Shown here: positions 21,039-57,552 of the stretch, one piece after another
Layout of the letters: each line of letters opens with the position of its first letter
How positions within the stretch are numbered: position 1 is the first letter of the stretch
NCBI GenBank assembly: GCA_008632985.1
Contig: QPGO01000003.1
Coordinates: 372,001-436,000 of the forward strand
Direction: 5' to 3'
Source: Psammoneis japonica
Lineage: Eukaryota
Length of the DNA stretch: 64,000 bases
The notes under the pieces: model-generated
The model's input: the letters and a program-made list of their open reading frames with translations, nothing else
Databases searched by the model: none
Told to the model about the DNA's origin: nothing
Made by a program: the position numbers and the translations under genes

Positions 21039-21324
21039 TTTTATGAAAAGAGGAAATGATGTTAGTTTTGTCGACGGAGCCGTTGCAGAGGTAACCCTTG
21101 CAATGACTCTGTTATGTGTGCTTATTTTGATTTTTTTTGAATGGAGCAGTTTGCTTTCGTGTTCTTGTGATGACGGAGGTCATCGAGGAGCCAATAAAGG
21201 TCATATGTCTTTTAACAGCATTAATGGCTTGAAGATGTATATGAAGTCATTATATGACTTTACATTGATTGGTATCCATATACTAAATCAACTAAAAAAT
21301 CTGAACATTAAGCCTCGCCGACCT

Positions 21325-21829: not shown

Positions 21830-24800
21830 CTTCATTGCTCACGGAAAATTGCATGCCCACTGCTGGCTGACACTGCCGTTAAGATGCAACCGCACGCCAA
21901 GCCAAAACTCCATCACTTTTGACCGCCGGCTCCACCTCATTTCATCCATTTCCTCTCTAGACCTGACTGGATGCGGAAAGTTCCAGGATCTAATTTTCCC
22001 ACATCAACAAAGAACATCAAAAGACTCAAGTCATGGAGAGCATTGGCATGGAAAGGCAGCTGCAAGCCCTCGCAGTCAAAGACATCTGTGCTGAAAGAAT
22101 GACAGGCAAAATGAAAATGTGAATGAAATCACACACACAACAACAATCTACTGAGGCCACATGTCACAGTGTGCTCACTGTGACAGCTTCCAGAGGTGGC
22201 TCTGAGACACCCTGCCTGGTTTTAAGACCCCAAGTGCTGCCAGAGTGGTTCGTGGCATCCGAGCATCCAAGAGGAGGCGAGGAGCCCATCAGGGCAGGCC
22301 TCCACTTCTCCATTTTACCTGGTGCATGGCCTGGGCTTGTTGGTGCACTGCCAAAATCTCCCTGCATGATGTGGACAATGTTGTGTCTTGGACAATGAAG
22401 AGAATCGATTGCAGAGCAGGAAGAAAGGCTCGTCACAGACCAGACACCTGCGCGCATGAACGAGAAGAAAAAAAAGGCTCGTGAGGTGTGCGTCTTTCAT
22501 CAAAACAACTCTAAAACCCAATCAATTACAATGCACTCACATGATTGTCTTCTTTGGAGTGTTTGAAGTCTGTCTGACAAATGCCACCATCATGGGTGTC
22601 CCCGAGGCTCCATCGCATTGTTTTGTTTCCATGGCATGTGCTTTTGACACTCCCAAAAAATGACACGCCATTGTCACACACCTGCCAAGACCCCAAGAAG
22701 GACATCAAGAGCATCACAAGTCTGTCTTAACATGCAAAATGGGTGAGCCAAAGGATGCTGAGTGGGGTGAAGCATGAAGCTCCCAAATGGATGCGCTCTG
22801 GCGGTGCCAATGACTTGAAAAACATGCCAAAAAACCAGACACCACAATCGACCGCAGGAGACGATCCATCCACTTTTCAAGCTGCAACAAAATGCAACAA
22901 TGATCTTCAGTGACTGGGAAAATCACATGAAATGAGAAAACACAGAAAGAACTTGCCTCGGCAACGTTTTCGACCATTCAGATGTCACCCGCACAGTGCA
23001 GCAATCAAGGCACGAGTCGATGCACGCAACCGTTTGAACCGTGTGTCAAAACCAAAGCCCCCTGGAAGCCAAACCAGTGTGTCAACCTCTTCACAACAGC
23101 AATGGAAAGAGATCACACATGAAAAATGTGTCTGTCCCACCATGTTTGCCATGACGAGATGCATCAAAGTGCAGTGTGCATGGCTGTTTCTCAGTCTGTG
23201 GTGCGGCATGCCAAATCGAGAGCATTTGAGCAGAATGAAGGAAATGAAGAGGATTTGCTCTTTTGTGTCATCACACAACTTGCACCAGATTGGACCGTTC
23301 ATTTCTGCTTGTCGCCACAGAAATGGAGCTGTGTCGTCACAGGATTCTGCACAAGTTCCAGTGCATTTCCTGCACAGTTTATGAAGAGCTGCCTCCGCAG
23401 CTGGACGATTGCCTCTCTGCTGGTGGCAGAGGTCACGGCCTTGCGGCTTCAACAAAGTGCTCACAACCACTGAGATGGTTTGTGTGGCCTGCACACAAAC
23501 CCATGAGATCATTTTTTGCCTCCCCATTCTCCTCTGGCTCTCAGATTGCCATCATCTGGCAAAAAACCCATTCTTGCAGAAAGAGTTGCTGAGACAAAAG
23601 ACGCTTCCCCCACCACATCTTGTTCCCCCAACTTTTGTTTGTCAATGCTGTCCAATGACATTGAAGTTTGATGGCGTTGACACATCGCTGGAGTTTGAAC
23701 TAGTTTTTTAAGCCTTGTTGTTGCATGATTGAATTTGAAGCCTTTTCCGTTGAACCTCCAGGCATCTTTCCTTTTGCTGTTTGCTGTGTGACCATCATGC
23801 CAGCACCAGAATGACCGATGGTCTCTCAAAACACAAACAAGCCACAGCTTGCTTGCTCTGATGAGCATGACAGTCATTGCACACTTGAGTGCTCTTCTCA
23901 AAGCAAGATGCTTTTGGACCATGTCTCGTGCCCCAAACAAAAGCACTCAAAACCCACAAGATTTCAATTTTTGCCTCCCCCTCTCAACCTTGGCAGATTG
24001 CCACACCTGCCCAAAAACCCACTCCTGCAGAAAGAGCACAGAGATGAGAAATGAGAAACAGGATTTTTCCAGCACCGCCTCTTTGCACAGGATGCAAGAT
24101 GATGCAGTGACTGTGTGTGAGGTGGCACCTGGCCTCCTGTTCAAGCTCTGGGTGATGCGCACAGGCTTGATTCCCATCACTGACCCATTTTTGCATTTGG
24201 CACAATGAACTCATCCTTTAAAGTCAGTTTTTTCCCCACAAATCAAAGGGCAAGTGTGCACAAAACTCATGTTTTTTGTGTGCACTCATCTTTCAATTTT
24301 TAAAAATGATCAAATTTGAAAGAGTTTGATGTGCCAAACTGCACACACAAAATTGCCCTCTCATGTGACAGATTGCTCATCACCTGGGGCTAGAACAGGC
24401 ACCACCTGGTCAGCTTGTGCACTGTGCAAAGCAGGTTTTTGCTTGCCTGGCTGGCAGCAGCATTGCAAAAAAAATGTTGTCCAGAGCACATGTGCAAGAG
24501 TGGGAATGGTGAAAGCGTGGCACATGCATTGGGCAGCATTTTCAAGCTGATGGCAATGATGCTCGGAGTTTTGGAGCAAGGAAACACAGTTTTGGGTGTT
24601 GCAGGAGGAGGTGCAGCCATGGCCAATGGGCATCACTTTGCCTTCTGCATGCTGGCGGGCAACCTGGAAAGGAAGCGGAGGCGTGATGTGGCTGGGCAAT
24701 GGGCCATCCTTTCAGCAGGTGCTGCACAAGAACGTGTGAGCCGTGGGCCCTCCAAGGTTTTAGAGTTCCTTTGTGACAAGAAGGATTTTGGTGTGCCGCC

Positions 24801-26450
24801 AATGTGCAGAGCCAAAGTTGGGTTGTGGCTGCAGCTGAGAGGCACATCTGTGATGGGGCCAAGACTCAGAGCAGTGCTTGGGATTTTGTCTTTGACACCA
24901 ATGCAGAGAGGATTTTCAGTGCCCATGCCAACAGAAATGGGAGCCAGCAGCATTTTGCCAATGCATGGACTCACTCCCTGGTGGCCGCAGCTTGGCAGGA
25001 TTTTGCCATTGCAAAGTGGAGATCAATGCAGAGGTGACAGTGTGGGGGGGGCAAATGCCGTTTGTGGATCAAGGTGAGAGAGAGCAGCATGAGCAAGCTG
25101 CAGAGCTGAGCTGTTGAGAGTGTGTGTCAACTGGCAGGTTGGCTGGTCCAGGGGTGCAGCGCAGATGGGAAACATGGCCAAAGGCAGTGCCATTGTTGGT
25201 GCTGGAGGCTTTCTGTTCACAGGACATCTGAGGTGCATCCTTTTTGGTGTCAACAGAGCTTTTGTTGCCTTGTAAAGCAGCCAGCATGTTGCTGTGTCAT
25301 GTGTGGACCATCTTTGCCCTGCACAAATCAGTTGCCAGCCAAGCAGCAGAGCTGGAGTTGGGTGCAATGGCATCTTGGATGTCAGCCAGTGGGGGGCAGT
25401 TGACAAGCCATGGGGGGGACCTGGAAGCAGATTGCCTCAAAATCAGTCAGCAGCTGGAAAGAGCTCAGCTGACTAACTTGGTCCAGCAGCAGTGTTGAGT
25501 GTGAGGGAGTGCAAATCCTGGAGTTTCCAGCAAGTGTGCCAGCTGAACTTGGTTTGAAAGTCCATTGAGAGCTGAGGGCAACAGTGAGTGCTTCAACAGC
25601 ACTGACTTTCAGAGAACTGTCAGCAAGCCATGGAGGAGTCACTGAGGATGGAGAGCAGTCTCTCTTGTGGCTGGTGCTGGCCAAAGAGTCTGGGAACCCC
25701 CAAAGTGGCATTGATGGCGGCCCTGGGCCACACTGCATCTCTCTCAAACAGCCAACTTTTTGAGACAGACAGTCTTTCACTGGCACTGGCTCTCATCAAA
25801 TTCTGTGCCAGGGCAGAATGTTTGATCTCGGATGTGAAGCAGTCAACAACACAGACAGCTGAGATGTGCCTTGCTGCCTTGTGCTGCTCCCACACCTTGT
25901 TGTCCACACACACACTTTGAAGTGTTGGATGGCTGGGATGAGGACCCCAGCGGCACCATCTCTGTGGCACGTTGAGGAGCATGGATTTGGAAGAAGGTTG
26001 TTCCAGCTGCTGCTTTGTCTTGAGTTTACATTTTGGTGACAGGACATTGACATTTGCAGGGCCTGAGTTGATGACACATGAGTTGGAGGGGATTGCTCCA
26101 GGGGGTGCACTGGTGGATCCCACACTGCAGCTGAGCAGGTGTTGGCCAGATCAACTGATGTCTCAGCTCCCCCTGTGCAAAAAAAAGCTCTCAATCCAAC
26201 CCATGGCTGGTGTCAGTGGCAGATCCATCAGCAGTGGCTCTTCCCCTGGCTCGATGGGGGATGTTGCTCTGAGCTTGGGCATGGCTTCTGGGTGCAAGTC
26301 AACCCTGTGCTAAAACCCGTCCAAAAGGTCCAGCTTTCTCATCATGCAGATGCCACATCCAAAAGCTGGGTCACCCGAAGTGTGTCACAGAGCACTTGTG
26401 TGGCCTCTGGAGGAGCCAGCTTGTGCATCTCGTCGCATTGAGCCCATTAG
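21830..26450. other. TpA-depleted degenerate repeat block 2 (element family not recognised)
   Basis: Same composition as the other blocks. Contains repeat copy B (23635-23830) and an internal repeat pair near 23510-23585 and 23967-24035. Confidence 0.75.
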
Positions 26451-36964: not shown

Positions 36965-38075
36965 GAAGATTCTTTTGCTGGAACTTGTCAGCACGCACAG
37001 CACCGGCAGAGCACGCCGTAGAGACCATGAAGAAGAAGTCTCATCGTAAAGCAGACGCAGCGATGACATGTGTGTGTGTGTGTGTCTTCCAGTCGAATTC
37101 ACAGAGAGTCTTTTTTGGCAAGTCATTCGATCATCACAAAGCATCGCTCCCCATCATCGCCTTCTTCTGGCAAAACAGGTGTGAACACAACTGGTGTGGT
37201 TGCTCCTCCTTTGCAAGCAGAAACTCTGGACATGCTGAGCAGGTGGATGATCAAAATTGATGGGGGGCACTTGATTGTGGCAAGGCAGCTTGCTGGCCTT
37301 GGCTGCCCAAAAAAAGTTTCGAGAACACTTGTGCTGGTGTGGAGACAAAAACACATCCTCGCCCGCCAGAGGAGATTGAGGCAAGACCATTGTGGCCACT
37401 TTGCCGGCTGTTTTCCAAAAAGCACAAGGCTCTTTCCACTCACAAACTTCATGGTGCAAGTTTGATCTTTTACACATGAAAAGCACACCAGCAAACAAGT
37501 GGCACAAAAGACTGGTGGGAAAAAATCTTTTGCAGTGGGTTTGTGGCTCGCCATTTTTTGCTGCAAAAAACTGGAAAAGTTGTTGCCAGCTGCTCTTCTT
37601 AAATTCAGCATTGGCCACCAAATGGCACTGCCAGCATCTGCACCCCCTGCTGCCACATTGTCTTGCAAGAAGTTTGGCAAAATGACAAAGCGGGCAACGG
37701 CAACCTCTTGCATTGCCAGCACATTTCTTGCTGTGCTGGTGCTCTCTGCCATTTCTTGTGCCAAGTTCATGATGGCAAGTGCATGGAAACAGCAAAAAAT
37801 GGAAACAGAAACCAGCCTCCCCAAGTTGCAAGAGATTTTGGCTGCAGCAAGGGCCCGCTGGCTGGTGGCACAGCTCACCACTGGTTGACAGGGCATGTCT
37901 GATGGCAACCTTGCATCCAAATGGGAGCAAACAAAAGCAGGTGACAAACATTGGCAATCTGCACTTTGCCACAATGTCCAAACCTGCCATTCTTGCTGCA
38001 GTGTGCATGTGCCCCCTGATGTTGTGGGCTTCGAATCAACAACAGATGTGTGAAAAGATTCGCTGGTGGACACTT
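36965..38075. other. TpA-depleted degenerate block 3 (family not recognised)
   Basis: Almost no TA over about 1.1 kb, TG/CA-rich, with overlapping nearly Tyr-free ORFs, in the divergent intergenic region. Confidence 0.7.
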
Positions 38076-41250: not shown

Positions 41251-42287
41251 GATTAATCTTTTTGTTTTTTAAAAGCAAGAAATGAGAAGGTGTACAGTAC
41301 AACAATGGGGTGGAGATACTATGGTTGAACTGCTATGATCTTGAATCTGTGATCGCTCTTTTCACCTGCCGCCAAAAAAAAAGCGTTCCGAGGCGATGAC
41401 GCAACTGCCACGTCACCGTTTCGGCACCAACTCACATCTTTGACTCGTCGGACTAAAAAAGTCTCGCACCGCCGGTGCTACAGCATAAAAAAAAAGGTTG
41501 TCAAACAATGGACCTTTCTTCATTTCAAGATTTTTGCCTGGGTGGGGACAGACTGTACGTCAAGCGGAAATTGGGCAGAATTTCTTGTTGGAACTCTCCC
41601 TGTGGACATCAGACCGCGCCCCGCAGCTTCTGGTGCTTTTCCAAAGATGCGAGCACAAATTCAAAAATCACCAACGGCGAAAATGGCACTCATCTCTGCG
41701 ATGCCAATTTTGAAGACGATCGGCTCCACACTGCCAACAACCCCCATCCCATGACTGACATGTGTGTGTTGTGATGTCATGGTGAGAAAAATCATTGTGT
41801 TGAGTTGAGTTTGTGCATCGTGTGGTGCAGTGTCGTGTTTTGATGGTTTTGGGGGTTGTTGCATGCCCTTGTCTTGCTCACAGTCATTTGTCTCGCATCA
41901 TGTTGTAGAGCAAGGCATTGACACTCCATTGTTCACAGTGTTGAAGCTTTCGTGAGTGATGAGAATTGAGTTGTGGATTGTGGGAGTGTCCTCAGTGACC
42001 AGCACTGCCGATCATTCGTGGACGCAGCAGGAGCCGCTTCTCATCTGCTGTTTGCTGTGCTCGATGGTTTGCAATGTCCAGAGTGTCATCAGAAACAGAG
42101 TGCAATGAGGTGCAAAGGGCATTGGGGTGATTCTCAGGTGCCAGTGTCGCAGTGACTAGATTGAGATTGTGAGGAGAGGAGACTCTCAACGTTCCCTCTT
42201 CTGAATCACTTGAGCGACGTTTTCATTGCTGACGTGAGTCTTTGCAATGGCAAGTCACAATGACCGCAATGATGATTTGACAATCTT

Positions 42288-42705
42288 TGCACTCCCTCTC
42301 ATTGTGTCTTGTGAGTTTAATCAACCAATCAGATCAATTTTGGCTGACTCCGGTTGCTGTTGTTCATGAAGAGAAATTGCCCTTCACACTCACCAACCCA
42401 TGACCAAAGGACGTAAGGCTTCAAGTGCCTCGGCCGTCAAGGGCTTGGTGAGACAGTCTGCCAGTTGATCCTTTGCATCAATGACATGCATTGAGATCTC
42501 CTTCCTTGTGACACAGTCACGGAAGTGATGCAACTTGACATTTGAGTGCTTGGTGCGTGGTCTGCACTTGTGTGCACGTGCCATCTCCAGAGCACCGCTG
42601 TTGTCCTCAAACACTTGACAATGAATCTTGGGCTGCAACATCTTGACAGGGAATCCATGCCACTTGAGTTCTTTCAGCATTTCCATCAAGGGTGTGGCTT
42701 CTTGG
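42288..42705 (-). mobile_element. Ty1/copia pol 3' end (RNase H C-terminus) with polypurine tract and probable LTR start
   Basis: EATPLMEMLKEL...VFEDNSGALEMA..KCRPRTKH.NVKLHHFRDCV...DQLADCLTKPL...MGW*. GAGAGGGAG at 42300-42292 is followed by TGCA. Confidence 0.85.
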
Positions 42706-42724
42706 AAAGCTGAATTGTTTGGAG

Positions 42725-43090
42725 AAGTGTGCCAGAAGCAACATTGCACACATCACCCACCAGTGCACACGGTTTGCGGCAGATCCCAAGGTTGAGCACG
42801 GCAAGGCCATGCGATGGCTGGGCCGACACTTGTGCAAGACCAGAGACAAGGGCACTGTCCTGAAGCCTGCAAAAGGGAAGGATTTGGAAGTGTGTGTGGA
42901 CGCAGATTTTAGTGGAAATTGGGATCCACGAGAAGCAGGCTAAGATCGCGACACAGCAAGATCGCAACACGGTTGTGTCGTTGCTTGCACGGGTTGTCCC
43001 ATGCTGTGGAAATCTCAGCTTCAGACTGAGACAGCCTCAAGCAGTGCTGAGTCTGAACACACTGGCTTGTCACATGCTTTACGAGAAGCC
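42725..43090 (+). mobile_element. Ty1/copia RT end and RNase H start, inverted relative to 42288-42705
   Basis: RSNIAHITHQCTRFAADPKVEHGKAMRWLGRHL..T.DKG...LEVCVDADFSGNW...WKSQLQTETASSSAESEHTGLSHALREA. Confidence 0.85.
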
Positions 43091-43612
43091 CACACAACAA
43101 GTTTGGACGACATTTGTGCTGTTGATTTGTTTGGTTCATGTGTGTTTGCAGTGAGTGTGATCAATCTTGTGCTCATCCTTGTTGCCAGATGTGTTGGAGC
43201 CACTTTTGTGTCATTTGCATGCAATGGCTGGACTTGGAACTCAACAATGACACCTGGATTGGCCCCCACACAACAAGTTTGGATGATGTTTGTGCATTTA
43301 ATTTGTTTGGTTCACACATGCATTTGCAGTGAGCGTGATCAATCTCACGCTCATGCTTGTTGCTGGACGCGTTGGTGCCACTTCCACATCGTTTGCACAC
43401 GATGCCTCTGCTTGGAACTCAACAATGCCTGGATTGGCTTTTGCACAACAAGTTTGGATGACATTTGTGCATTTGATTTGTTTGGTTCATGTGTGTTTGC
43501 AGTGAGCGCGATCAATCTTGTGCTCATCCTTGTTGTTGCATGTGTTGGAGCTGCTTTCATGTCATTTGTGCATGATGCCTTGGCTTGGAACTCAACAACA
43601 ATGCCCGGATTT
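43091..43612 (+). repeat. Tandem repeat, about 175-bp unit x3
   Basis: caacaagtttgga at 43095, 43271 and 43446; ttggaactcaacaa near the end of each unit. Confidence 0.92.
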
Positions 43613-43654
43613 AAAAAAAAAAAAAGACAGATTGAGTCAGCCAAGATCTGTGAA

Positions 43655-43925
43655 GATCCAAGATGTCGAGGGAACCATGTCGCACTCAGCATTGCTGCCA
43701 CCGCAGATGTTTCTCATCTCTCGTGGACTGGCAGCCACAACATTCTCAGTGTCATTTTGGCACTCTCTCACTCCAACCCAAGATGTCGAGGGAACCATGA
43801 CATTTCTCATCTCTCGTGGACTGGCAGCCACAGCATTCTCAGCATCATTTTGGCATTGTTCTCACTCCAACCCATTCCGATTTTGTCATTTTAGCACTGT
43901 TCTCACTCCAACCCATTCCGATTTG
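43655..43925 (+). repeat. Short nested duplications
   Basis: ccaagatgtcgagggaaccatg...tctcatctctcgtggactggcagccaca x2 and ctcactccaaccca x3. Confidence 0.85.
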
Positions 43926-45719
43926 CCTCCACAACAGTGAAAGCCTGTCAATCTACAATTGCTCTCATGCAAAAGCCCATCAATCTGCAATGTTGTCAGT
44001 GTCACTGCAGCGTCATTCTTGCTCTCACCCACTCCAATTTGCTGCCCCAGTGGCCTTGAACAATGGCAAAAGCCTGTCAACATGGGTGAACGACAATGAT
44101 GTCATGTGCTTGATTGCTGCATTGTGGGCATTCTGTCGCCACATCATCTGTGCATGCCAATGAACCACACATTCAGCATCTTCTTTTCCCCAGCTGTCCA
44201 CAACAAGAATCTTCCCACCCGCAGCGCCACACCCCACAAGATCCAAGTCTTGACACATGAGACAACCACCAACTCAGTTCCCCAACCCGCTTGCATGTCA
44301 GCTCCCAGCGGTGCCAGGAATGCAGCATCGTTTGCACATTTTGGCACACACTGCACTGAACAGAGCTAGAATTCGGGGCGCAGCATTCCCACTCTCGTCA
44401 GCATGCCAACATGCATGCTCCGCATTCCACATCCTTCTCTTTTGGCGGAACCACATCAGAAACCAGCTTGATGTCCCACTTTAGAATTGAGCGCAAAAAT
44501 GCTGCCTTCTGATCAAGCTCCTGCAATGAAGGAGCAAAATTCCCAGCACAGAATTTCTCATGGTGTTGAACGGTGAAAACAAGTCCAAATGCACAGGGGC
44601 TGCGCTTGTTTTGGAGGTTGGTGAAGGACGAGAACTTTGATTTTTTGTCTTGCCCCCCAGGGAGTTGCTTCAACAGCCCTTCATTCCCATTGTGAGTGGC
44701 AGTTCCTGCCCTTGCAACCACGTGTTGCAAGGCATGTCATGTGAAAAGAACATGGTGAACACTGTCATTCCAATGATGGCTGCAAGCAAAAAAATTGAGA
44801 AATGATTTCACCCCAAGCAAATTCCACTTGACGTGCAGTTTGTCCGTCTAACTTGAAATGAAGACCAGGCCTGCGGGGATCATTGACCACTTGTCTTTCT
44901 TTTTGGGTGTGGGTGTGTGCCATTGCATGCTACATTGCCTGCATGCACGCACCGGTGCTGCAGGGCCCTGCTGCCAGGGCCAGCATTGTGGCAGCTGAGT
45001 GGCGTGGCCACCGCACCAGTGACGCGGATGACTGTTGTGTTTGATGTCTCATGCCATTTTGGGGGCTGTGGCGAGGTGCACGGACACTTTTTTTTCCAAT
45101 TTATCACCACAATGGCGCATCACACAAACTCACTTGTTGTTTGATGTGTTTTCCCCAATGTGACTGTTTTGTGTGGAATTCATGATAAATTGTCTTTGTT
45201 TGCAACTGCACGCATTTTTCAACATGCCACGCCGGCAATCCCAATTTTTCAGAACTTTCGAGCTCTCCTGAAAAACCGTTCCACGCACCCGTCGCAGGGA
45301 ATTTGTCGATTTTTTAGGATGTCCCCACAACCTCTCATGTCCTCAATGATCATTCTGTGAATCCGAAGAATTCATCTGTGCTGAACAACCCATCCCATTC
45401 CAAAATCTGAGGGACACACTTTCAAACTCAGATGGGCTGCCCGACTGCCCAACTGCCTGACCCCCCCAACTGCCCGACTGCTGGACCGACACGAAAAAGT
45501 CTGCAATCACCAACCACTGAGTGGTCAATGAAAGGTCCATGGAGTGGCAGGGTGGGGGGGGGGGGGGTTCTCACTCCTGCACACTGAAATTTATGTTTGT
45601 TGCACGTGGTGTTGACTTTGAGGGGTGACAGTTCAGAGATCACTGTGACACCCCATTTTGCCAATTTGCCAATGGTCATTGGTCATTTTGGCAACTGATT
45701 TTTGCTGAACCAAGTGGCG

Positions 45720-45960
45720 AACCAAAGCTCAATTTGTCCCAACTGGTTGGGACCTTTTCTCTGTTGGCGACCATGCCAGCATTGATGAGAGCCATGGTGA
45801 TGCCAACATTGCCACTTCCCCTGCTGCCACAGTTGATGGTGAACCAAAGCTCAATTTGTCCCCACTGGTTGGGACCTTTTCTCTGTTGGTGACCATGCCA
45901 GCATTGATGAGAGCCATGGTGAAGCCAATGTTGCCACTTCCCCTGCTGCTGCAGTTGATG
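45720..45960 (+). repeat. About 122-bp tandem duplication
   Basis: aaccaaagctcaatttgtccc...gggaccttttctctgttgg.gaccatgccagcattgatgagagccatggtga...gccacttcccctgctgc x2. Confidence 0.85.
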
Positions 45961-46034
45961 GCGCTGCTCCCAATGCAGCCAGTGAATGCTTCTGTTTCCC
46001 CACTCCTCCCATCAGCTCCAAACAAAATTTCAGG

Positions 46035-47091
46035 CACTTGCACTGCTCCTTGCCAGTGTTTCTGCATGAGAAATCCATTTTCAATGACAGCAGCCATTTG
46101 CAGAGAAGTTCAATGACAAATGATTTTAAACTCAGCAACCAAGAGCAATCTGCTCCAGTTGCCCGAGGTGAGCTGGACACCAGCCGCATGCTTGAGCACA
46201 TCTCTGAAATTTGCCACTGGCCACAGGCAAAGTGCCAAGGCCATTTGTTGCACAAGGGCAAGTGTGGCCAGGGCCAGCACCAGATTGGTTTTTTGATGAG
46301 CAAGCTGAGACAGGCGCGGCTCCTGCCGTTCATCTCTGTGATCCCAAAACATGTTCGTCCACTCCAGTGACACGACAGCAGCTCACAAGCAACCGCGACC
46401 AAGGTGGCGGTGCTTTGTTGAAAGACATGGCTGGTGTGGCACCCAATGAGGGAATTGAGCATGGATTCAAACTCTCAGCGCCATTCCCAAGAAGAGCTTG
46501 GTGAAAAAAAATCTCCACTGGGAAGATGACTTGGACGAGCCCCATTTCCATTGAAGCACAGCCACTTGCACTGCTCCTTGCCAGTGTTTCTACATGAGAA
46601 ATCCATTTTCAAGAACCGTGGCCATTTGCAGAGAAGTTCAATGACAAATGGTTTTAAACTCAGTGACCAAGAGCAATCTGCTCCAGTTGCTCGAGGTGAG
46701 CTGGACACCGGCCGCATGCTTGAGCGCATCTCTGAAATTTGCCACTGGCCACAGGCAAAGTGCCAAGGCCATTTGTTGCACAAGGGCGAGTGTGGCCATG
46801 GCCAGCACCAGATTGGTTTTTTGATGAGCAAGCTGAGACAGGCGTGGCTCCTGCTGTTCATCTCTGTGATCCCAAAACATGTTTGTCCACTCCAGCGACA
46901 TGACAGCCGCTCACAATGGCAACCAAGGTGATGGTGCTTTGTTGAAAGACATGGCTGGTGTGGCACCCAATGAGGGAATTGAGCTTGGATTCAAACTCTC
47001 AATGCCATCCATCCCCAAGAAGAGCTCGGTGAAAAAAAAATCTCCACTGGGAAGATGACTTGGACGAGCCCCATTTCCATTGAAGCACAGC
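46035..47091 (+). repeat. 528-bp tandem duplication (46035-46562 and 46563-47091)
   Basis: cacttgcactgctccttgccagtgtttct...ccatttccattgaagcacag at both units; near-identical ORF translations. Confidence 0.92.
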
Positions 47092-48399
47092 ACTGCACAA
47101 CAACCACATGCAGTTCAAACACAAGCTGGACAAAGACATTGAAGTGGGCTCATCCAAGAACAACAGTTCATCCCCAGCAGCAGGCTCCACAGCCAACATT
47201 GTTGCATCCTCTGCTTTGGCAGACTCATCCACTGCTGGTTCAACTCTTTTTTCCAAGGTGCCAGGAGATCTGCTGGGAAGATGACTTTGACTCCTGGGCT
47301 TTGAAGTTGGTTCTTGCAGTTGGTGTGTCCTCCCTGCTAAAATGAACAGAGGAAGAGTCATTGGCAAAGCTGTTGTCCTCATCCAACAGACATGAAGCAT
47401 CCTCTCTGGCCACTGTTGCACTTGCTGATCCATCTGTCTCATCCCATTGGAAAGGAGTTGGGTGCTCTGATTGGTCGAATGCACCAATTTGTCTGATGAC
47501 TCCATGTTTGTCTTGATGTTTGGGATTGAGGCCGGCCAAATCTGTTGCCACTTGTCCATGATCCAAGAGGAGAATTGCAATCGGGGTCCACCACAGGAGG
47601 AGAAACAACATGCACTGTGTTTGAGCACAAATGATGATGCAAAGAAGGACCGTGGTAAATTGTTGACCCAGTGGATTTCACCTCAGTCCAGAGAATCTGT
47701 GTCCCCGCACTGGTGCAGATGTCAAGCTCACATTTTGGCAAAGTGTGGCCAGAAACTGCTCGTTCTTTGCTGGAGTGTCCTTTGATCAGTGTGTTCATTG
47801 CACCCAATGATTTGAGTGTCACTGGGTTGCTTGCGTTTCCCAACTGCCACTTTGTCAGAGCTGACTCACTTCATTTTGCCATCAGAGAGAAAGTTCTGAC
47901 AGCCACCCGACAGCATCCAGCACCAAGATTTGCATCGGAAGTTGGGGGCAGAGATGCTTCTGCCAACACACAGCCCAGACAGTTGAGCAAGTCGAGGAGG
48001 CTCAGCACTCAGCACTCAGCACCCACATCAAGGTTCTTCAAGCGACTCTTCATCTCTTGGAGGACCGACATTCAAGTCAAGTGAGCCCACATCACCTCTT
48101 GCGGAATCAGTGCAGAACATGGATTTGATGGTGTTGCAAGCTTTCAGTGCTTGACACTTTACAACAGGCTCTTGGTGCTCGAGCCAGGCATGAGGAATGC
48201 CAGCAATGGACTTCACAGAGGCATGCATTCTGCATTGTTGACCAGTGCACACAACACCACAACACACTCAGGCACAAGAGCACAAAGCCAGCGAAGCAAG
48301 ACGCCACAAAACCAACCACGCCAGCCCGCATTCCTGATCTTCCGTAGACACTGCATGCTGGGAACCCCAACAAGATCCCTTGAACTGCTTCTCCCATCA

Positions 48400-51300
48400 A
48401 GATGAGCGACACCAATTGGGGCAGTTAGAGGTGTTTCCAGATGCACCTCCCATCAGCAAAGAACTGCAATCACATTGACCACCCCACCCTGTGGACCCGG
48501 CCCATCCGACACCACCACCAACTTCCTGCACAGTCACAGGTTGTGCACCATCAAGCATTTTGTTGACTTCACTTCCCTGCCCCTCATTGCAGTCTTCAAC
48601 ATGATGGGGCACAAACCACTCAAGAACCTTGGAGCTGAGGCAGTGCGCATTCATGCCTTTGGCACACACTCCAAAGACCACCTCTCTGATGAGGACGGTG
48701 CCATCGATGTCACCCATTTTGACCCGGACAAATTCCATGCTCTCAGGCAACAACATGCACGAACCATCCGCGTCACACTCCGTGATGCCTCAAATGAATG
48801 GCGTGCATCCAGCAGCAACACTCCATTGCCAACTGCCAGTGTGCCAGTGCCCTCTCCTTCCACCTCTCATGTGAACGCCTCCACCCCTGCACCCACTGCA
48901 GCCATGGACACCTCCACCATGATCAATGCTGTGCTGACCAAGGATGTGCCCAATGCCCTCACCATGGCTGCACCATCAAATCCACCACCCATTCACAATT
49001 CCCCCCACCGGCATGCACCCCCACCTGCTCCGGGTGTGTCCTTTGGAGGTGCGCACACCAATCCCACCCTGGACACTCTCCACTCCCACCACCCTTCACT
49101 CCCTGACATGCAACATCCTGGCAATGCAGGGGAGTGTCCCAGAGATGATGTTTCTGCATCCGGATCCAACAGCACCATGGCATCCTGCATCGACACCGGA
49201 CACCATCACTTCCCATGCAACCCACAGCTGCATCATTCCAAAGAATGTTGCCACGATGTGCACAAGCGTCATGGCATGTCAGTCAATCAAGGCAGCATGG
49301 GATGGAGAAGGGAAGTCATCCCCAAACTTCAAATCTGCACTTGAAGGACACTGGATGATGCAACAAGCAAGCCACACTGCGGATCCCAAGTTCCTTCAAT
49401 TGCACTGCAAACACAGTGAATGCATTCTTGAGTTGATGCCATCACTTCAACCTCACATCACATTGGCCCAACTGGAAATGGACCGTGAGTGTGTGTGTGG
49501 GAGTCTGGCATCAGCTTGCTGCAAAGGAGTGGGCAAACAATTCCTTGCACCCCACACGAAGGACAGAGACGGCTTCAAAGCATGGCGGGCCTTCCTCAAA
49601 CACCACAAAGGTGACAGGACCGCGGATCTGCTTGAGTCCAACTGGGAAGATGAGATCAACACTTGACACACACCCAACATTGCACCAGTGGCATGACTGC
49701 CTTCATCAACAACTGCAAAACAGCCTTCATGGAGATCAACCACATCAACACAGAAGCAGCCACTCACAATGGCATGCCCTTGCACTCCACCTGCCAATGG
49801 ACATCAGATGAAGCACACAAGTCCCGTCTCCTTGCAAACCCACACACAGAATTGACCAGAGATGTTGTTGCTCAGCGAGGTTCACTGCCCTGAAAACATG
49901 CTCATGCACACCTTTGCAAGTGTGCGAAGTCACACAACAAGTGTCGTTCAAGCATCAGCCAACACTGTGCTGAACGGGCAAGCCAAGATCCCTCAGACAC
50001 CAACAGCAACACTGAGAGTGCATTCCAAGCCATCCTTGACTCACACATTTGCTGGCAGATGCACTCGCAATGGCAACAACACACCTGGCAAACTTGACAT
50101 CCCTCCTGTGATCCTCAAACTGCTCTCCAATGAAGGTGAAGCCATTTGCCAATGCGACAAGATTGTGGATTGCATGGCTTCTCAAGCCAAGGACAAAGAT
50201 GCAGCAAATGACAAGCCGGATGACAACCCTGGTCACAAACTGTCACTCCCTCAACAACACCCTGCCTGCAAAGCCCAAACTGTCACAACTGTCCCTGTTG
50301 GTGCCACTGACAATGCGGAACACCCAAATGACATCCATTGATTCCACTGATGCGCATGCCTCCACCAAAGATGATGAGGACACTGCTGTCCATTCCTTGC
50401 TGAAGGTGTCTCAAGACCTGGCTGGCCTCTTCTGCTCTGTCAACATGACCCAATCTGTCATCACCGGTGCACCAGTCCATGAAGTGCATGCCTTGCATCT
50501 CGGATGGGGGGCGGGTGCAGGTGTCTTTGGCACTGGATGGCATTTGTTTGGTGATGCCGGATGCAAAGCCAATCTGGTTGGCTTTGACAAAACCCCAGCA
50601 TGCAGAGACAGACTGGACATCACCAGTGGCATCACCGCCGTCAACCTCACCGACGGTGCAGTTGTTCTCCTGTGCATGCATGAAGGTGTGTCCAACCCTG
50701 TGGCATCTTTCTCCCTCATCTCTGAGTGCCAATGTCAAAAAGCTGGATGCATCATGGACTCTGTCACAAACCACCACCTCAGTGCCCAAGGCCAATGTGG
50801 CATGGTTCATTGCCCTGGATGGCATTGTCATTCCCTTCACCAACCAAGGGACCCTCATGACCTTCAACCACTGCATGCCTGCGGCCAACAAGAAACTGCG
50901 CACCCTCAAACCCACCCCGATCACCACGGAAGGCCCCAGGGACCCAGCTGCTCACTGTGCCGCAGCACCACCCCACAAACTCAATGTCATTGCGCCAGGG
51001 CTGCCATTCAATGCCATTGCCATCAACCATGACACAAGGGGGGATGGTGCCAGCCAAGAAAAAGGAGCCAACAATGCAGCCACAGTGTCAGCCAACAATG
51101 CACTCCAGGAAGAAGACATGTCCTCCATGCACGCATTGGTCTCTCATGACAAGGATGATGACAACTTGTCCATTTGTGCTGATGATGCCTCAGAACACAG
51201 CTCAACCCCTGGCTCCTTTCCCAAACTCAACACACACGATGACAAGTCCACTGATTCTCCTGAAGACACTGTGAGCAATGTGCCACTTGTGACAAGGAGA

Positions 51301-53930
51301 AAGCCGCCCATCAGTGGACCCAACAAAGAACCGGCGACATGAGTGCTCCCCACAATGATGACATGATGCCTGCCTCAGAGGTGATGGATGCACAACAAGA
51401 ACCCAACTCACCCCGGGGTGATGAAGCCAATGATTGCAACATGACAGTTGAACACTTGTGGCACCCAGTCAACCACACACTGCACCCATGCTGCATTGAC
51501 AAAGCACTGCAACCAGACACCACACTGGAGGCACCACTGCCATCTGATGGCAAGTTTCATGATTGCCCCACCAATCTTGACAATGCCCTTGTTCACCCCC
51601 TCATTGGAGTCGAACTGCAGTTCATGGACAAATTGGTCGGACACCATGAAATGCCCCAACACAACACCAATGCATGTGTGAGCAGGAAACAACGGGTGCC
51701 ACACTGCCTGTGGAACCAATGTTCTGCTTCAACAATGCAGTGGAACACATCCCGAAGGAATGGCAAAAGAGGGCTTTTCACCTGACCATGGACTGCACCC
51801 ATGCAGCAACTGTGAAAGCGATGGAGATCAACAAATGCTTGGACAGACTCAAAGACAACGAATTGTTTGGCCACAATGCACCTTTTGACTTGCATGCACA
51901 TGCCACCCATGCCACCAAGAAAGCCCACTTGGAAGGGGAGCTCAAAGCACTGCACCCTCTGTTCATGTGCCAACCTCAAGAAGTGGTCAAACGAACCCCA
52001 GAGGCCACCACCCAACTGGCCAAGTCACACTTCCACATGCCTTTGCAGCAACACTTCAAGGCTCGACATCCTCAACTGAGTTGCATGCATCTCAAAGAAA
52101 TGGTGGCAACCGACACCTTCTTCTCTGTGGTGTGAAGAGCCTCTCTCTGGATGCACCTGTGCAGAGGTTTGTTGGGAATCTCATCACACATGATCAACTT
52201 CTGCCACCCCATGCACACAGAATCCGAGTTCCTGGCAACATGTGAAGATTTCATTGGTGGAGCACCACGCATGCTCTGTGGGGACAATGCCAAGGCCCAG
52301 CAATCCAAAGCCATTGTGGACATCAACCAAAAATTCATGATTGGTGATCAATGCACCAAACCCCACCATCCACAACAAAATCCAGCCAAACTCCATGCTC
52401 CATGCTGCCAAGTTCATCAAGACCCACTCCCAAACAGCATCAGACTGGACCAGTGCACCAAGTGTGGTTTGGCTGGAATGCTGCACATGTGTGGCAGACG
52501 TCCACAACATGATGGCCAATGAAACCATTGGGTGGTCTGCTCCCACCAAAGTCAGGCACGGTGACACCCCTGATGCATCAGCATTCATGGATTTCCACTT
52601 TTCCCAAAAGATCCTGCACCTGGACACAAACCTGCCCTTCCCACACAGCAGAGAATTGCTGGGACACTGGTCAGGCATCAAGCACAACATGGGAGATGCA
52701 CTGATGCACAAGATGATGGACCATCAAGTGCAACGTGGGAGATGCATTGACGCACAAGATGATGGACCGGTGCACTTGGGCTTCTTCCTTTCCAGAATGA
52801 ATGACCTCCAGGTCTGTGCTGCAGATGTTGGTGACACCTTCCTCAAAGGTGCCATCTGCAAGAAGTGCTGTGTCATTGCAGGCCCAGAATTTGGTGAGCT
52901 CCAGGGATGCATCCTCTCATCATCCAGAAAGTTCTGTGTGGCTTGCATGCCTCCAGTGCCCGCTTCCATGAAAACTTGTCCACTTGCCTCCACAAACTTG
53001 GTTTCTGACCATCCAAGCCCAGTGCCAATTTTTGGATCAAACGTGCCAGCGACCACTGCGAGCACATCACCACCTTTGTTGATGATGTTGCCATCTTTTC
53101 CAAGCACCCCATGGCCATCATTGATGAGTTGCACAAGCATTGTACACTCAAAGGTGCAGGAACTGCGGAATGTCACTTGGGGGGGCATGTCATTTGCCCA
53201 AGTGATGCATGGAAGAATGACGGAGTTAGCACCACACTGTCAGCCAAGACTTCCATCAAAAACACTGTGTCCAAAGTTGAGGGCATGTTTGATGCTAACC
53301 TGAGACTCCACAAGACACCCATGTGCAAACTGCACCATCCAGAGCTTGATGAGAGTCCACCATGCAACCCCGATGATGCACCCCAATTCTGCAGCCTGAT
53401 TGGCAGTGCCAACTGGGCTGTTTTTCTTGGATGCATGCACATCCACAGTGCCACTGCAACTCTGGCACGCTGCTCCATGGACCCTCACAAAGGCCACCTG
53501 CAAGCTGCAAGATGCATCTTCTGACACCTCAAAAAGTTCCCCAAAGGTCAAGCAATCATTGACCCATTGCATCCAGAGCTGCCAGATGCTGAAATGCCTG
53601 ACACCACCAATTGGAAGGAGATGCACCCCAATGCCAAAGAGGAATTGCCAACTGGTGCCCCTGAGCCCCTGGGAAAACCAGCATCCATGACCTTCTGGGT
53701 GGACGTCGACCAAGCACATGACAAGGTCACACACCAATCTGTCTCCAGCAACAAAATGTTTGTGAAGTTGACCTGTGAACAAATGACAAAGGATGGTCAA
53801 AACATCAATGCATGGATCAGAGTCAGTGGCAGCCCACATGGCAGTTGAACAAATGATCAAGTGGAGGTGTGACTTGCACATGCTTGGAGCACCTTTGCCT
53901 GCTGCAGCATTGTGTTGCGGACAAACTGAA
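48400..53930 (+). mobile_element. Decayed Ty1/copia (CoDi-like) LTR retrotransposon: gag-PR-IN-RT-RH, with an internal deletion near 52770
   Basis: gag DRDGFKAWRAFL; PR region ANLVGFD, HEGV, SLISECQ; IN ATTQLAK, VATDTFFS, DNAKAQ, PHHPQQNPA, GDTPDAS; RT ADVGDTFL, IAGPEFG, LCGL, FVDD, HPELDESP, SLIGSANW; RH VDVDQAHDKVT, SMHGSESVAA. LTRs were not recognised. Confidence 0.9.
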
Positions 53931-54299
53931 GGAGATGACAACAACAAACCTGAGTTTGCCAGAATTGAGAGGAAACAGCAAGTGTCTCCACACTGGTTCC
54001 TCCATGCCAAACAAAAGACAGCTGTTTTTCACTCCAGCAACCTTCCCAGACCAGAGCTCATGAGCATGGGAGAGGGGCGAGGATCCCACAGTGGTGGGGC
54101 ACAGTTTTGGGTGTCGCACTTGGAGATGGCAGCTTTTTTAAAGATTTTCAGGTCTCAAAAGTGTTTTTTGGAGCTTGTTTTCTCTTTCTTTGTTCCAAAA
54201 AGTCCAACTCAGGCACATTTTCTGACAACAATCATCATCTCCCAACAACAACAGATCAAAATTAGCACAACTCAAAAATGACAAGCAATGAAGTGGTGA

Positions 54300-57200
54300 G
54301 CCATGCTGCCCTGCAAAAGAACTCCGGAACGCCAAATTTGTGCAGAAGGAGAACCAGGGCTCCAGCAGAAATGCCAAAAAAGTCCGGTCACAAAGAACAC
54401 AGCTTGAGCGGCATGGTCCACAGACACCAAGGCTTTGGCTGCAGGTGAGTTTTGTTGAAATGAGAGAGAAAGGCAGTGTTGGAAAGGTGTTGAAGGCAGG
54501 GTGCATTGTCACCTGCTCTGTCAACAGGACCAGGGTGGCAGTCATGCAGCAACATGGTGCGGTGCTTGCATTGATGTTTGTGTTGTTGCCAGAGGAGCTT
54601 GGCAGCAGGCTTGACAGATGCAGCAGATCCTTTGCACTGCCAAAACATGGTGCCAAGGTTGAAGTGCACTCCAGTTGCGTGCGTTTGTGAAGGTCGTGCA
54701 TGTTGGTGGCAGCAACATTGTGGACGATGCTGCTGGTGAGCTTGAGGCCAGTGTTGATGATGGGACCTTGGAGCTTTTTGTGCATTGCAAGTGAATCTGC
54801 AAAATCCTTTGGGAAATGCATGTGCCATGCAATGGGGCTTGGATTGTGTTTGATGTGGTTGTGACCGGAGGGGAAGCATCGCAATTTTGCAGCTCAGGGC
54901 ACTGCAGTTTCAAAGTTGGTGTGGGGATGATGACTCCCCCCAGCACCATGCCTGGAGGCATCACAGCATCCATGAACTGTGGGTGGCAGTGGCACCAGAG
55001 CTCCCTGAAATCATTCAAGATGGAGTGCACATTGTTGGTGACCATGAGGCACATCCATGCATCTGGGGTGGTGTGGCACAGTGCTTCTTGCAATTTGGAG
55101 AACAGGCCTCTGGCACTGGGCAAGGTGACAGTGAGTGACTGCAGCTCTCCCACCAGCTTGTGGCAATGCATTTGTGTTTGCAAGGGCAGTCCTGGTGGAG
55201 AGTCTTAGCAAGTTTTGACCTGTGGCATGGGGTGAGTCTGAGGGTCATTGACAGTGCATTGATGAGCCACCCTGACGCTTCCTTTTGTGTGGACCATGCA
55301 GCTTCTCCAGCCTTCAGCTTCTTAACCAAGACTGGTGCCTTGCATGCCACATTGTCCTGATTGTCTGGAGGACAAAGGATGTTGTCAATGGCATGCAAGA
55401 GGATGCAGTGGATGTTGCACTTTTCCTCTGTGGACCCCTTTGCCACACCCATGAAGTTGTCAACATGTGTGTCGGTGCAGGAGAGGCAATGATGATGGTG
55501 CAGGTTTAGATGTGGGTCCAGTGTTGCAGGCACTGGCACTGCCAATCCTGGTGGCAGCATGCACTTGGGGACCCAGCTGCTTGCCAGTTGCTCCAGGGGA
55601 TGGGGCGGCACTGTTTCGGCCCGCACCAAGGAGGTGTTGGCAAGATCCATGATCATTTCCATTGCAGTGCCAGCAAAAGCTGGTGGTGAGTTGGTCCATC
55701 CCACAGGAAGGCAGGTGGGCACAGCCACCAACAATGGATTGCCAGGCAGGTTTGGAAACACAACTCCAAGCAAAATGTGCTTGGTCAGGATTTGGCTGGA
55801 GGTGGCAGAAGCCGTCAGCCAAATCAACCTTCACAAGGTAGACCCAGCCTTGTGCAGGGTCAGCAAGTGAGATGCATCACAAGAGGTGGTCAAATGCGTG
55901 CCCAAACTGCATCGCTTCAACCAGGGCATTTGGCTGGGTGGCGTTGTTGGTGCTGCAGAAGGTGCAACAGACGACAGGTCATGGGTGGTGGCCATGCTGC
56001 AGGATGACCACAATGGGGCTAAGTCGAAGTCCCAATGCATCTTGGACTTCGGCATGCAGCAGACAACTCAAAAACCTTCCTCATTGTAATTGGTCATTCC
56101 TTGTGCAAGAACTCTGTGTGCTTGCAAGTGGACTTGTGCCCCCCCCCTCTGTCCAAGCTTGCCACTGGCTCCTCTTGGCTCCATGGTGCACACGCAATGG
56201 CAACTGGGACTCCAAGTTGTTTGCAGCCCTGCAGCACCCTGTGAGCCGGGTGCTGGTGGGCTTTGTGCAATGGTCCCCAGTCTCCCCTGCTGCTGCAATG
56301 ACACAACAAGTGGCTGAGTCCTCCAAGACACAGCAGATTGGTGTCATGACTGACATGCTCACCCAGTTTGTCAACTTTTGTGCTGAACTTGCAATGGCCT
56401 GTTTACGCGCAGCAAGGTGGCTTTGCAAGCATGTGGAACACTGCACCTGCAGCACTGTCAATGCACAGGTTGACAGCTGCAAAGGCTGTCAAACCTGAGT
56501 CCCTGAACTCAGGCCCTGGGAAGACTTGGCCGCTTGGGCCAAACTTGTCCAAAACTGTGGCAAGTGCTGCTCATTGTGCACTTGACACAAGTGCACAAGC
56601 TTGACCACTCCTTGCTCACCAAAGGCCTGTCAAGGCATCTTGCTGAGGTCTGAGGCACATTGCCAGGCCACTGCATCAAGTTGCTGCTGATGCTGCTCAG
56701 CTGTGAGGCCATCGATGGCCTCTGCCACTGGGCACACCTGCTGAGCTGCAGTGCTTGCCCGTTCCGATCGGGAAGGTCCAAGCTCACCTTGTGGTTGCAG
56801 AACTGGATGAGGGCCATGTTGGGAGGCTGCAGCAAAGTCAGGTGGTCTGGGAGGGGGCGGATGGCTGCCACTTGACTTGCATTGGTGGCAGCCCCAAACA
56901 CTCCAGTGAAGGCTTGCTTGGGTGCAAGGGCCACCAGCAGTGGCAAGTGGGCACACCCAAAGGGGATGTGCATGGTGAGCCGGGTGTGCACTTTGATGGT
57001 GCTCACATCATTGTGGCCCGGTGGGGGCACTGGGTCCTTGGGATCGGCGGTGATTGCAGCGACCATGGCTGCATCGTCGAGGACCCTCGTGCCAGCTGGA
57101 GCCAGACCTGCTTCCTCCTGTGGGAATGGGACTGTGGAGCACTGATTCAGTGCTAGATCGCCTGTGATCACGCAGGTGTTTCCATCCCACGGCTGGGGTG

Positions 57201-57390
57201 GTCCCACCACCGTTGTGGGGTGACGGGAGACTCGATGACAGACTTGATGGATGACGCCCACGTCCTGGGTTTGCCGCGCGACAGTGGCGCGACAGCGCGA
57301 GGGGGACGTTGTGCTCAGAGGCGGCGTTGATTCGCTCGGTGAGTGGTTGTGGGCCATGACGGGAAGGTCCTTGGATGCGGGCCGCAAAGC
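54300..57390 (-). mobile_element. Decayed DIRS/Ngaro-like retrotransposon RT-RNase H region (tyrosine recombinase gene not seen)
   Basis: HKSTCKHTEFLHKE, KVDLADGFC, GVVFP..LPVGWTNSPPAF, HVDNF (=YVDDF), LLHAIDNIL.P, KKLKAGEAAW.TQK..GW, LVGELQSL..LPSARGLFS.LQEAL and GPIINTGLKL. Confidence 0.72.
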
Positions 57391-57552
57391 AGTGGCCTAT
57401 CTTTCAACTTGTGCTAGCTAGGACGTAGAACTGGAGAAGCGGTGTAAGTCGAGAATTCCTATTTTTGGCTTTTAATCTGTGACAGGTAAAAGTTCCAATA
57501 TTTCAGAGGTATTTTCCCGTCAAATCAAGCGTTTAACATTTTTCCCGTCAAA

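Follow-up and report, generated by a model that had tools for sequence, protein, structure and literature searches.

Near-complete loss of TpA from retroelement relics of a probable stramenopile, and the DNA-level TpA to TpG/CpA hypermutation that very probably caused it

How can several kilobases of DNA come to lose one dinucleotide almost completely, when the genes on either side keep theirs? The question is raised by four blocks (B1 to B4; Table 1) in a 64-kb stretch of DNA, referred to here as the window, which together comprise 25,659 nt (40% of the window) and have hardly any TA (TpA) left. The extreme case is found in the largest block, B4, where the 4,716 bases from 48427 to 53142 contain no TA at all, the bounding TA dinucleotides being at 48426 and 53143. 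At the 4.0% TA frequency of the window's host DNA, ~189 would be expected (Poisson P ~1e-82). A first-pass annotation, made from the letters alone, had reported this gap (as 48428 to 53142, with an expectation of about 250), and had proposed a mutator that changes TpA on either strand and is distinct from both CpG decay and the repeat-induced point mutation (RIP) of fungi. The gap is upheld, with the lower expectation, and ancestral-state tests against intact relatives bear out the mutator. We consider it highly likely that the blocks are relics of integrated retroelements, hit at the DNA level by a TpA to TpG/CpA process that ran to near-exhaustion of TA.

The depletion is as selective as it is deep. 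Over all four blocks, TA occurs 73 times, with an observed/expected ratio (o/e) of 0.05 (0.59 in host DNA), and CG 473 times (o/e 0.29; 0.97 in host DNA), whereas TG (2,857; o/e 1.86) and CA (2,943; o/e 1.76) exceed their host values of 1.14 and 1.16, respectively. CpG is lowered less fully than TA, as had been noted. The remaining 12 dinucleotides have block o/e values within 0.21 of host, and for several the agreement is close (AA 1.16 in both; TT 1.20 vs 1.15; AG 0.97 vs 0.98). Across the 1-kb bins between 42001 and 56001, the o/e ranges are 0.00-0.08 for TA, 0.14-0.51 for CG and 1.57-2.63 for TG and CA. When host frequencies are scaled to the length of the blocks, TA is present at 73 vs ~1,027 predicted and CG at 473 vs ~1,425, while TG and CA together reach 5,800 vs ~3,673. 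The summed loss of TA and CG (~1,906; 954 + 952) is close to the gain in TG and CA (~2,127), and therefore both self-complementary pyrimidine-purine steps have been converted to TG/CA.

The borders of B4 are sharp, lying within 100-200 nt of the host genes in 100-nt counts, and the limits first given for it (41560 and 57395) agree with these counts to about 100-200 nt. Beyond them, TA and tyrosine are normal, as had been stated: host DNA has the TA o/e given above, and tyrosine makes up 1.0-2.5% of residues in host open reading frames (ORFs), as against 0% in the four transposable element (TE) ORFs tested. B1, B2 and B3 carry the same signature as B4, the only block that the earlier annotation had covered. 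As a side observation, the 73 surviving TA dinucleotides have unusual neighbors: a 3' T is found in 6 of 146 pooled contexts (26% in host), half have a 3' A, and 5 of the 73 sit in TACG. The scarcity of 3' T could stem either from the bases that the mutator prefers next to its target or from the creation of new TA out of CA or TG.

The consequences for coding sequence are those that had been anticipated, i.e., disablement by missense change along with erasure of stops. Tyrosines have become cysteine or histidine, including one in a reverse transcriptase (RT) motif, and the six frames of 48427-53142 contain neither TAA nor TAG, which leaves TGA as the sole stop. Because TAA and TAG are erased, the region 41000-58000 is rich in open frames, with 24 ORFs of at least 150 aa in 17 kb, overlapping and on both strands.

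What, then, were these sequences? Pfam is blind to the block ORFs because the copies are too mutated (0 of 10 matched, and a wider ORF scan of the window likewise gave no TE family in the blocks), and the elements were therefore named by homology searches. The two abutting Copia-type fragments at 42393-43090 have 171 homologues at E≤1e-3, the best with 68% identity; the relatives bear RVT_2 and gag-pre-integrase domains (PF07727/PF13976), and the named homologues come from the diatom Fragilaria crotonensis. A hidden Markov model (HMM) built from 40 intact Copia relatives matched 42393-43090, with a non-significant match at 53372-53536, and relaxed tblastn gave only weak collinear matches at 52.9-53.6 kb. 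Two other proteins, P0241 and P0242, were matched here (summed E 5e-51 for 52770-53945 vs P0242), and ~48.4-54 kb is therefore a second, distant Copia-type element. The arrangement typical of Ty1/Copia, an RVT_2-type RT followed by RNase H and collinear with full-length polyproteins, is found at both 42393-43090 and 52770-53945. The RT at 54.3-56.1 kb belongs to a third retroelement, which matches 1,071 proteins at E≤1e-3 and whose relatives carry a weak RVT_1 (below cut-off in 4 of the 9 scanned). In block-vs-block blastn, the single shared fragment is one of 241 nt (B1 1523-1759 = B2 24376-24136, 76% identity). All six of the motifs that had been quoted as having lost tyrosine are present (Table 1). 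Opposite LCGL, SMHGSE and the motifs of the Copia RNase H, the alignments show tyrosine-bearing motifs in intact relatives.

Intact relatives also serve to reconstruct what the missing TA became. They were used as outgroups, and a column was called conserved where at least 8-20 of them were available and no fewer than 60-70% agreed. In the Copia fragments at 42393-43090, none of eight conserved tyrosines is kept (four are now Cys and four His), although 128 of 145 other conserved residues survive. The RT at 54.3-56.1 kb has lost all six (two Cys, two His, one Thr, one Lys; others kept 174/262), and the RT at 25.5-26.4 kb both of its two (one His, one Phe; others kept 39/51). Pooled, tyrosine is kept at 0 of 16 positions, 13 of them now Cys/His, vs 341 of 458 for other residues (Fisher p = 7.5e-10). 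The second Copia-type element tells the same story, since homologue tyrosines are still tyrosine in 0 of 18 cases (vs P0242) and 0 of 15 (vs P0241). The substitution spectrum against intact relatives, which had been proposed as a check, is clearest in the well-preserved Copia fragments: among 25 changed conserved columns, 16 are explained by exactly one TpA transition, four by a CpG transition and five by neither. In the older, GC-richer RT at 54.3-56.1 kb, CpG decay dominates instead, with 37 CpG-type, 10 TpA-type and 47 other changes in 94 columns, and conserved arginines are kept at only 5 of 22 positions.

The same codon-level comparison resolves the strand on which the change was made. 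Sense-strand TA to TG and TA to CA changes number 9:7 in the Copia fragments, 6:4 in the RT at 54.3-56.1 kb and 0:3 in the RT at 25.5-26.4 kb, or 15:14 when pooled over the elements of the window. A TG-vs-CA imbalance by element orientation was considered as a sign of transcription-coupled bias and rejected, as the raw counts track base composition and the codon-level counts are symmetric. Seven intact relatives that were fetched as DNA (L001-L007) have TA o/e values of 0.59-0.80 and CG o/e values of 0.92-1.01; their TA is normal, and the element families are therefore not natively TA-poor.

Repeat copies within the blocks show when, and in which molecule, the change took place. Where two copies differ by adjacent substitutions such that one reads TG and the other CA, one ancestral TA or CG has been resolved independently in each, and hence the change came after duplication, in DNA. 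Such TG-versus-CA doubles number 2-8 per pair of block copies, as opposed to 0 in 229 differing positions of five host duplicate pairs. There are 5-8 per pair in the 43089-43611 array, whose units have a nucleotide identity of 0.74-0.82 vs a purine/pyrimidine identity of 0.97-0.98 (the differences are almost all transitions). The pair at 46031-47010 differs at 29 positions, comprising 11 CG-versus-TG/CA differences, two doubles and one TA-versus-TG, among others. Six doubles occur in the 241-nt fragment shared by B1 and B2, and five among the 40 differences listed between paralogous contigs of a public sequencing run (run X1).

The first-pass annotation had described the process as repeat-targeted, and here we part from it. 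In run X1, 48518-57931 has a word depth of 56.3 (55-57 in flanking genes), so that a relic spanning 48.5-57.9 kb is single-copy yet saturated. Conversely, a host inverted duplication with 1.28-kb, 91% identical arms is undepleted. Targeting by repetition is not supported, with the qualification that past copy number may have differed from the present one.

The relation between TA loss and CpG loss can be followed at the block edges and in other copies. At both ends of B4 (41600-41700 and 57000-57400), TA is still missing where CpG is at host level; at the right end the TA depletion runs to ~57400, while CG is back up from ~57000. TA depletion thus outruns CpG depletion by a few hundred bases at both ends, and the borders of the two are not identical. 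Outside the window, two nearly tyrosine-free proteins, P0161 and P0126, occur among the 120 Copia homologue matches listed. In P0161, 17 of 19 conserved tyrosines are Cys/His, although other conserved residues (274/324) and arginines (17/21) are largely kept; for P0126 the corresponding values are 7 of 9 and, for arginine, 14 of 15. In control proteins, tyrosine is kept at 29 of 31 (P0121) and 25 of 28 (P0153) positions. P0161 was judged from its protein against the DNA of an intact relative (L001, 82% identical): one TpA transition accounts for 50 of its 110 differing residues (26 TG, 24 CA) and a CpG transition for 13, which leaves 47 that fit neither. For L001 codons altered by a TpA transition, the product is present in P0161 at 50 of 89, vs 4 of 144-145 in intact control proteins; for those altered by a CpG transition, at 13 of 117, vs 4-6 of 205-209. 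The converse is seen at two metagenome loci with distant Copia relatives (L008, L009), which have CG o/e values of 0.20-0.39 but TA o/e values of 0.95-0.97; in other organisms, then, CpG has decayed with TpA left intact. Hypermutation of TpA and decay of CpG are therefore two separable processes, which overlie each other in this window. TA survival in the TA-free stretch is below 1/189 vs ~30% for CpG, which puts the per-site TpA rate at no less than four times (≥4x) the CpG rate.

The process, then, is specific to TpA, symmetric with respect to strand, active in place, confined to mobile DNA with sharp edges, and separable from the decay of CpG. Has it been seen before? The first-pass annotation knew of no description, a statement that has since been overtaken. 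In full-text literature searches, the sole description of a TpA-erasing hypermutation is a preprint on the rhizarian alga Bigelowiella natans (Mettrop et al., bioRxiv 10.64898/2026.01.13.699255), whose main text we follow here. In mutation-accumulation lines, 231 of 302 nuclear mutations fell in integrated nucleocytoplasmic large DNA virus (NCLDV) and virophage sequences. Within these viral regions, 230 of the 231 mutations (Illumina data) were A>G/T>C, all of those on TpA, at a rate ~1000-fold over background and in only some lines. The authors also count 124 clusters in the same genome that are poor in TpA and rich in CpA+TpG, note an excess of RT and DDE domains in its TpA-depleted coding sequences, and propose an ADAT2-like DNA adenine deaminase as the effector.

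The likeness to our blocks is close (TpA to TpG/CpA, on both strands, in foreign integrated DNA, leaving TpA-poor and CpA+TpG-rich clusters), and the features that define the B. natans type are found here too: TpA transitions, both strands, and mobile DNA affected with adjoining host genes spared. One feature of that system, the lack of a GC>AT excess, is not shared, as CpG o/e is 0.29 in the blocks; the CpG loss is probably a separate, superimposed process. The systems otherwise differ in host (a rhizarian vs a probable stramenopile), in target (NCLDV/virophage insertions, as the preprint describes them, vs relics of long terminal repeat (LTR)-type retroelements and tandem repeats), in depth (a Rho of 0.45 for the B. 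natans NCLDV region vs TA o/e of 0.00-0.08 here) and in the co-depletion of CpG, a term that occurs 0 times in the main text of the preprint. We regard this as the same kind of process as the B. natans TpA hypermutation, here saturated, on retrotransposons and in a probable stramenopile. What is new is the probable stramenopile host, the saturation on retrotransposons, the CpG decay in the same blocks, and a second hypermutated Copia in public data.

Other known systems are less alike. RIP of ascomycete fungi likewise disables mobile DNA in place by hypermutation through transitions, and it too leaves its mark on dinucleotide frequencies. Its direction is the opposite, however, since RIP converts CpA to TpA (RIPCAL abstract) and here TpA o/e is 0.05 with CpA/TpG at 1.76/1.86; moreover, RIP requires duplicated sequence, whereas here a single-copy relic is saturated and the 1.28-kb, 91% identical host duplication is spared. 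Deamination of 5-methylcytosine accounts for the CpG to TpG/CpA part (Arg CGN>TGN/CAN; hence the loss of arginine in the older RT) but cannot remove TpA, of which ~950 were lost, more completely than CpG (0.05 vs 0.29) and over a slightly wider footprint. ADAR/ADAT editing and TadA-derived base editors share the A>G change with a 5'-U/T preference; the former act on RNA and the latter are engineered for DNA, whereas here genomic DNA is changed on both strands and to saturation.

Our explanation runs as follows. Retroelements integrated, and their TA steps, which are palindromic, then underwent A:T>G:C transitions, in equal measure on the two strands, until TA had all but vanished. In the same domains, ~70% of CpG also gave way to TpG/CpA, for which methylation of cytosine followed by its deamination is the simplest cause. 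The resulting missense changes (Tyr>Cys/His, Ile>Met/Thr/Val, Arg>Cys/His) wrecked the coding content, and TAA and TAG were erased along the way. For the enzyme step we favor, tentatively and at somewhat less than even confidence, a DNA adenine deaminase, either of the TadA/ADAT2 lineage or of another, that silent chromatin would recruit; such an enzyme would yield hypoxanthine, to be fixed as G on replication. A TadA/ADAT2-type enzyme would owe its 5'-T preference to tRNA, where the target A34 follows U33. Recruitment by silent chromatin is suggested by the sharing of domains, though not of exact edges, between the TpA and CpG processes. As to candidates, Iyer et al. 2011 (PMC3239186) describe deaminase-SAM-Tudor-array proteins that are confined to stramenopiles, and a class of LmjF36.5940-like deaminases. 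Both are candidate leads, being predicted nucleic-acid deaminases of a fitting lineage fused to modules that read methylated proteins, much as the first-pass annotation had suggested searching for; they differ from what is needed here in that the authors predict small-RNA editing for them, and in that they belong to a CDD/CDA-like (cytidine deaminase) clade.

Several points weigh against this explanation. The process is read from one assembly and from contigs of one sample, and its effector is inferred. Run X1 is possibly the source of the assembly, its library type is off record, and it is not fully independent. No candidate mutator gene is visible among the ORFs of the 64-kb window in Pfam scans, as the earlier annotation had also remarked. 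The B. natans TpA mutations, as the preprint presents them, come without a GC>AT excess, so that the loss of CpG in our blocks could be a trait of this host in its own right; shared chromatin is how we would join the two losses. Of the 94 conserved columns that have changed in the older RT, 47 fit neither a TpA nor a CpG transition, and ordinary decay is therefore mixed in. An LTR search in purine/pyrimidine code gave no LTR pair for any element, which makes insertion unusable as a clock. Block borders were placed by eye on the 100-nt counts. Lastly, the stramenopile placement rests on nearest named homologues at 45-64% identity.

Among the alternatives, one competes for the enzyme step alone and leaves the process as described. 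A TET/JBP-type enzyme might modify the T of TpA (e.g., to 5-hydroxymethyluracil, 5hmU), with mispairing or misrepair then giving T>C, or A>G on the other strand. A palindromic target and a strand-symmetric outcome fit either base of the pair, and in dinoflagellates 5hmU is enriched at TpA and TpC. Nothing in the window favors this chemistry, however, and excision repair should add transversions and indels, whereas in purine/pyrimidine code the copies at 43.09-43.61 kb agree at 97-98% of positions. We consider it unlikely, if the most serious of the alternatives.

Patch repair, which the first-pass annotation had listed among its candidate mechanisms, fares less well and seems to us quite improbable. 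Here T:G mismatches from 5-methylcytosine deamination at CpG would draw mismatch repair and a Pol-eta-like polymerase, which would write A>G at nearby WA; Pol eta does so in somatic hypermutation. The appeal of this scheme is that it would tie the TpA and CpG depletions, which sit in the same blocks, to one cause. But a WA mutator should not stop at TA, and AA and TT are unaltered relative to host where TA o/e is 0.05; Pol-eta-like WA mutagenesis is therefore disfavored. Nor does TA loss follow CpG loss as it should: it extends past it at the block edges, and P0161 is heavy in TpA change and light in CpG change. In B. natans, moreover, TpA mutations are reported to arise with essentially no GC>AT (bioRxiv 10.64898/2026.01.13.699255).

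Editing of element RNA before integration, by an ADAR- or ADAT-like A-to-I activity with a 5'-U preference and followed by reverse transcription, would also put the change in the right context, for UA agrees with the editing preferences cited in the B. natans preprint and in the abstract of a fungal editing study. It predicts sense-strand TA>TG alone, yet TA>CA is equally common (14 vs 15 in the window; 24 vs 26 in P0161). Non-coding tandem copies at one locus differ as TG versus CA, i.e., they diverged in place, and the B. natans targets are described as integrated double-stranded DNA viruses mutating in place. Strand symmetry and in-place divergence therefore disfavor editing of retroelement RNA, which we hold to be very improbable.

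An artefact would dispense with mutation altogether: sequencing of silent DNA would systematically misread a modified base that sits at TpA (and CpG), and the true DNA would retain TA. The library types are off record, and run X1 might be the assembly's own data. However, run X1 contigs are built of exact 31-letter words, and one of them, of 9,414 nt, covers 48518-57931 gap-free and at even depth (56), with five letters that differ. Miscalls that depend on the strand would interrupt a contig of this kind at every site. The differences from the assembly comprise four of CG versus TG/CA and a single transversion, and none restores TA. Elsewhere in B4, at 44368, the assembly has TA where run X1 has TG. 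Proteins encoded on other contigs and present in the databases (P0161, P0126) bear the Tyr>Cys/His signature as well, and the TpA mutations that Illumina sequencing of mutation-accumulation lines revealed in B. natans are real, according to the preprint. We think an artefact no likelier than RNA editing. The last alternative, that these families avoid TA (and CG) adaptively, e.g., to evade a host nuclease, has the TA/CG composition of the blocks in its favor and nothing further, and is practically negligible given that intact relatives are TA-normal, invariant catalytic and structural tyrosines are lost, frames are broken, and copies carry TG versus CA at the same site.

Table 1. TA-depleted blocks of the window, with the elements and repeats located in them.
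Feature	Position	Strand	Description
B1	~1200..5650		TA 13 (o/e 0.04); CG o/e 0.33
B2	~22000..26450		TA 18 (o/e 0.07); CG o/e 0.24
RT, same family as the RT at ~54300..56100	~25500-26400	-	In B2; found by tblastn
B3	~37080..38000		0.9 kb, between two host genes; TA 2 (o/e 0.03); CG o/e 0.22
B4 (main block)	41560..57395		15,836 nt; nest of dead retroelements and tandem repeats, host gene either side; TA 40 (o/e 0.04); CG 306 (o/e 0.29); TG o/e 1.91; CA o/e 1.76
Copia-type polyprotein fragment, RNase H C-terminal end	42393..42710	-	KCRPRTKH, LADCLTK; homology, tblastn, HMM
Copia-type RT/RNase H fragment	42698..43090	+	CVDAD; inverted relative to, and abutting, the 42393..42710 fragment
Tandem array	43089..43611		Within B4; ~173-178-nt units
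High-copy repeat	44669..46002		Summed word depth 3,766-7,095 vs ~56 in flanks (run X1)
Tandem unit, two copies	46031..47010		524-528 nt; 94% identity
Second, distant Copia-type element, RT/RNase H	52770..53945	+	LCGL, SMHGSE; homologues P0241, P0242 (RVT_2)
Third retroelement, RT	~54300..56100	-	HVDNF at catalytic Y-x-D-D-type motif; homology

The remaining features of the window serve mainly as background to the blocks. A Pfam scan of B3 matched no family. The high-copy repeat at 44669-46002 corresponds to roughly 70-125 copies, with many run X1 contigs that have rearranged joints. A second public run (run X2, whose kind we guess to be DNA) covers the flanking genes at 40509-41322 and 57443-59999 at an uneven depth of 21-207, and gives no cover over 41334-57341 save traces at 44-46 kb; the pattern resembles expressed sequence. 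The lack of cover is no evidence that the block is silent.

Host genes near the blocks encode an AMP-binding enzyme, an ECH-family decarboxylase, a GH18 hydrolase and a subtilase with a PAN domain, all normal in TA, CpG and tyrosine, and the window carries unbroken ORFs of 3-4 kb. No database protein is more than 53% identical to the product of the ECH-family gene; its nearest named homologues are from a diatom (50%) and oomycetes (45-46%). Judging from such homologues, the host is probably a stramenopile, and diatom-like. B. natans, whose genes are rich in introns and whose proteome belongs to the collection searched, is an unlikely source. The duplication that served as the host-duplicate control is an inverted one of reprolysin-like metalloprotease genes (13083-14366 / 19771-21054), with 1,284-nt arms that are 91% complementary and have normal TA and CpG. 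It has further arms at 14400-15602 / 18557-19734 (83-90%) around a ~3 kb center. Some host genes contain in-frame tandem repeats (10587-11277, 29113-29797 and 57849-58190; units of 171 nt or 165-210 nt), and ORFs 9847-11949 and 28411-30522, which are two of these repeat-bearing genes, are matched by PT disordered repeats. Copies of the host repeats, too, differ mostly by transitions, with purine/pyrimidine identities of 0.96-0.99 vs nucleotide identities of 0.73-0.94.

TpA hypermutation has so far been described in a single rhizarian alga, in one preprint of 2026. Its occurrence in another host that is probably unrelated, and its completion there on retrotransposons, would mean that it is peculiar neither to one species nor to giant-virus insertions. 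The blocks also provide an end-state signature by which further cases can be found, namely TA o/e near 0, an absence of TAA and TAG, and tyrosine-free, Cys/His-rich "proteins". Gene callers will emit such spurious proteins in the course of annotation, and two are already in public protein collections. The mechanism is narrowed to one that is strand-symmetric, in place, strictly TpA-specific and separable from CpG methylation decay, and a comparison of the gene sets of the two hosts could expose the effector. If the effector is a DNA adenine deaminase, it would be of interest to genome defense and base-editing technology alike. A broader reading, which we advance with slightly less assurance than the enzyme step itself, is that TpA-specific DNA hypermutation may be an old genome defense common to protists of the stramenopile-alveolate-rhizarian (SAR) group, or at least to stramenopiles and rhizarians. 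It would be the A:T>G:C mirror of RIP without repeat recognition, aimed by silent chromatin or small RNAs, independent of cytosine methylation and saturating on retrotransposons, and its effector would be a natural DNA adenine deaminase (an ADAT2/TadA descendant or a Tudor-array deaminase). If this is true, such an enzyme would be the first natural counterpart of the laboratory adenine base editors.

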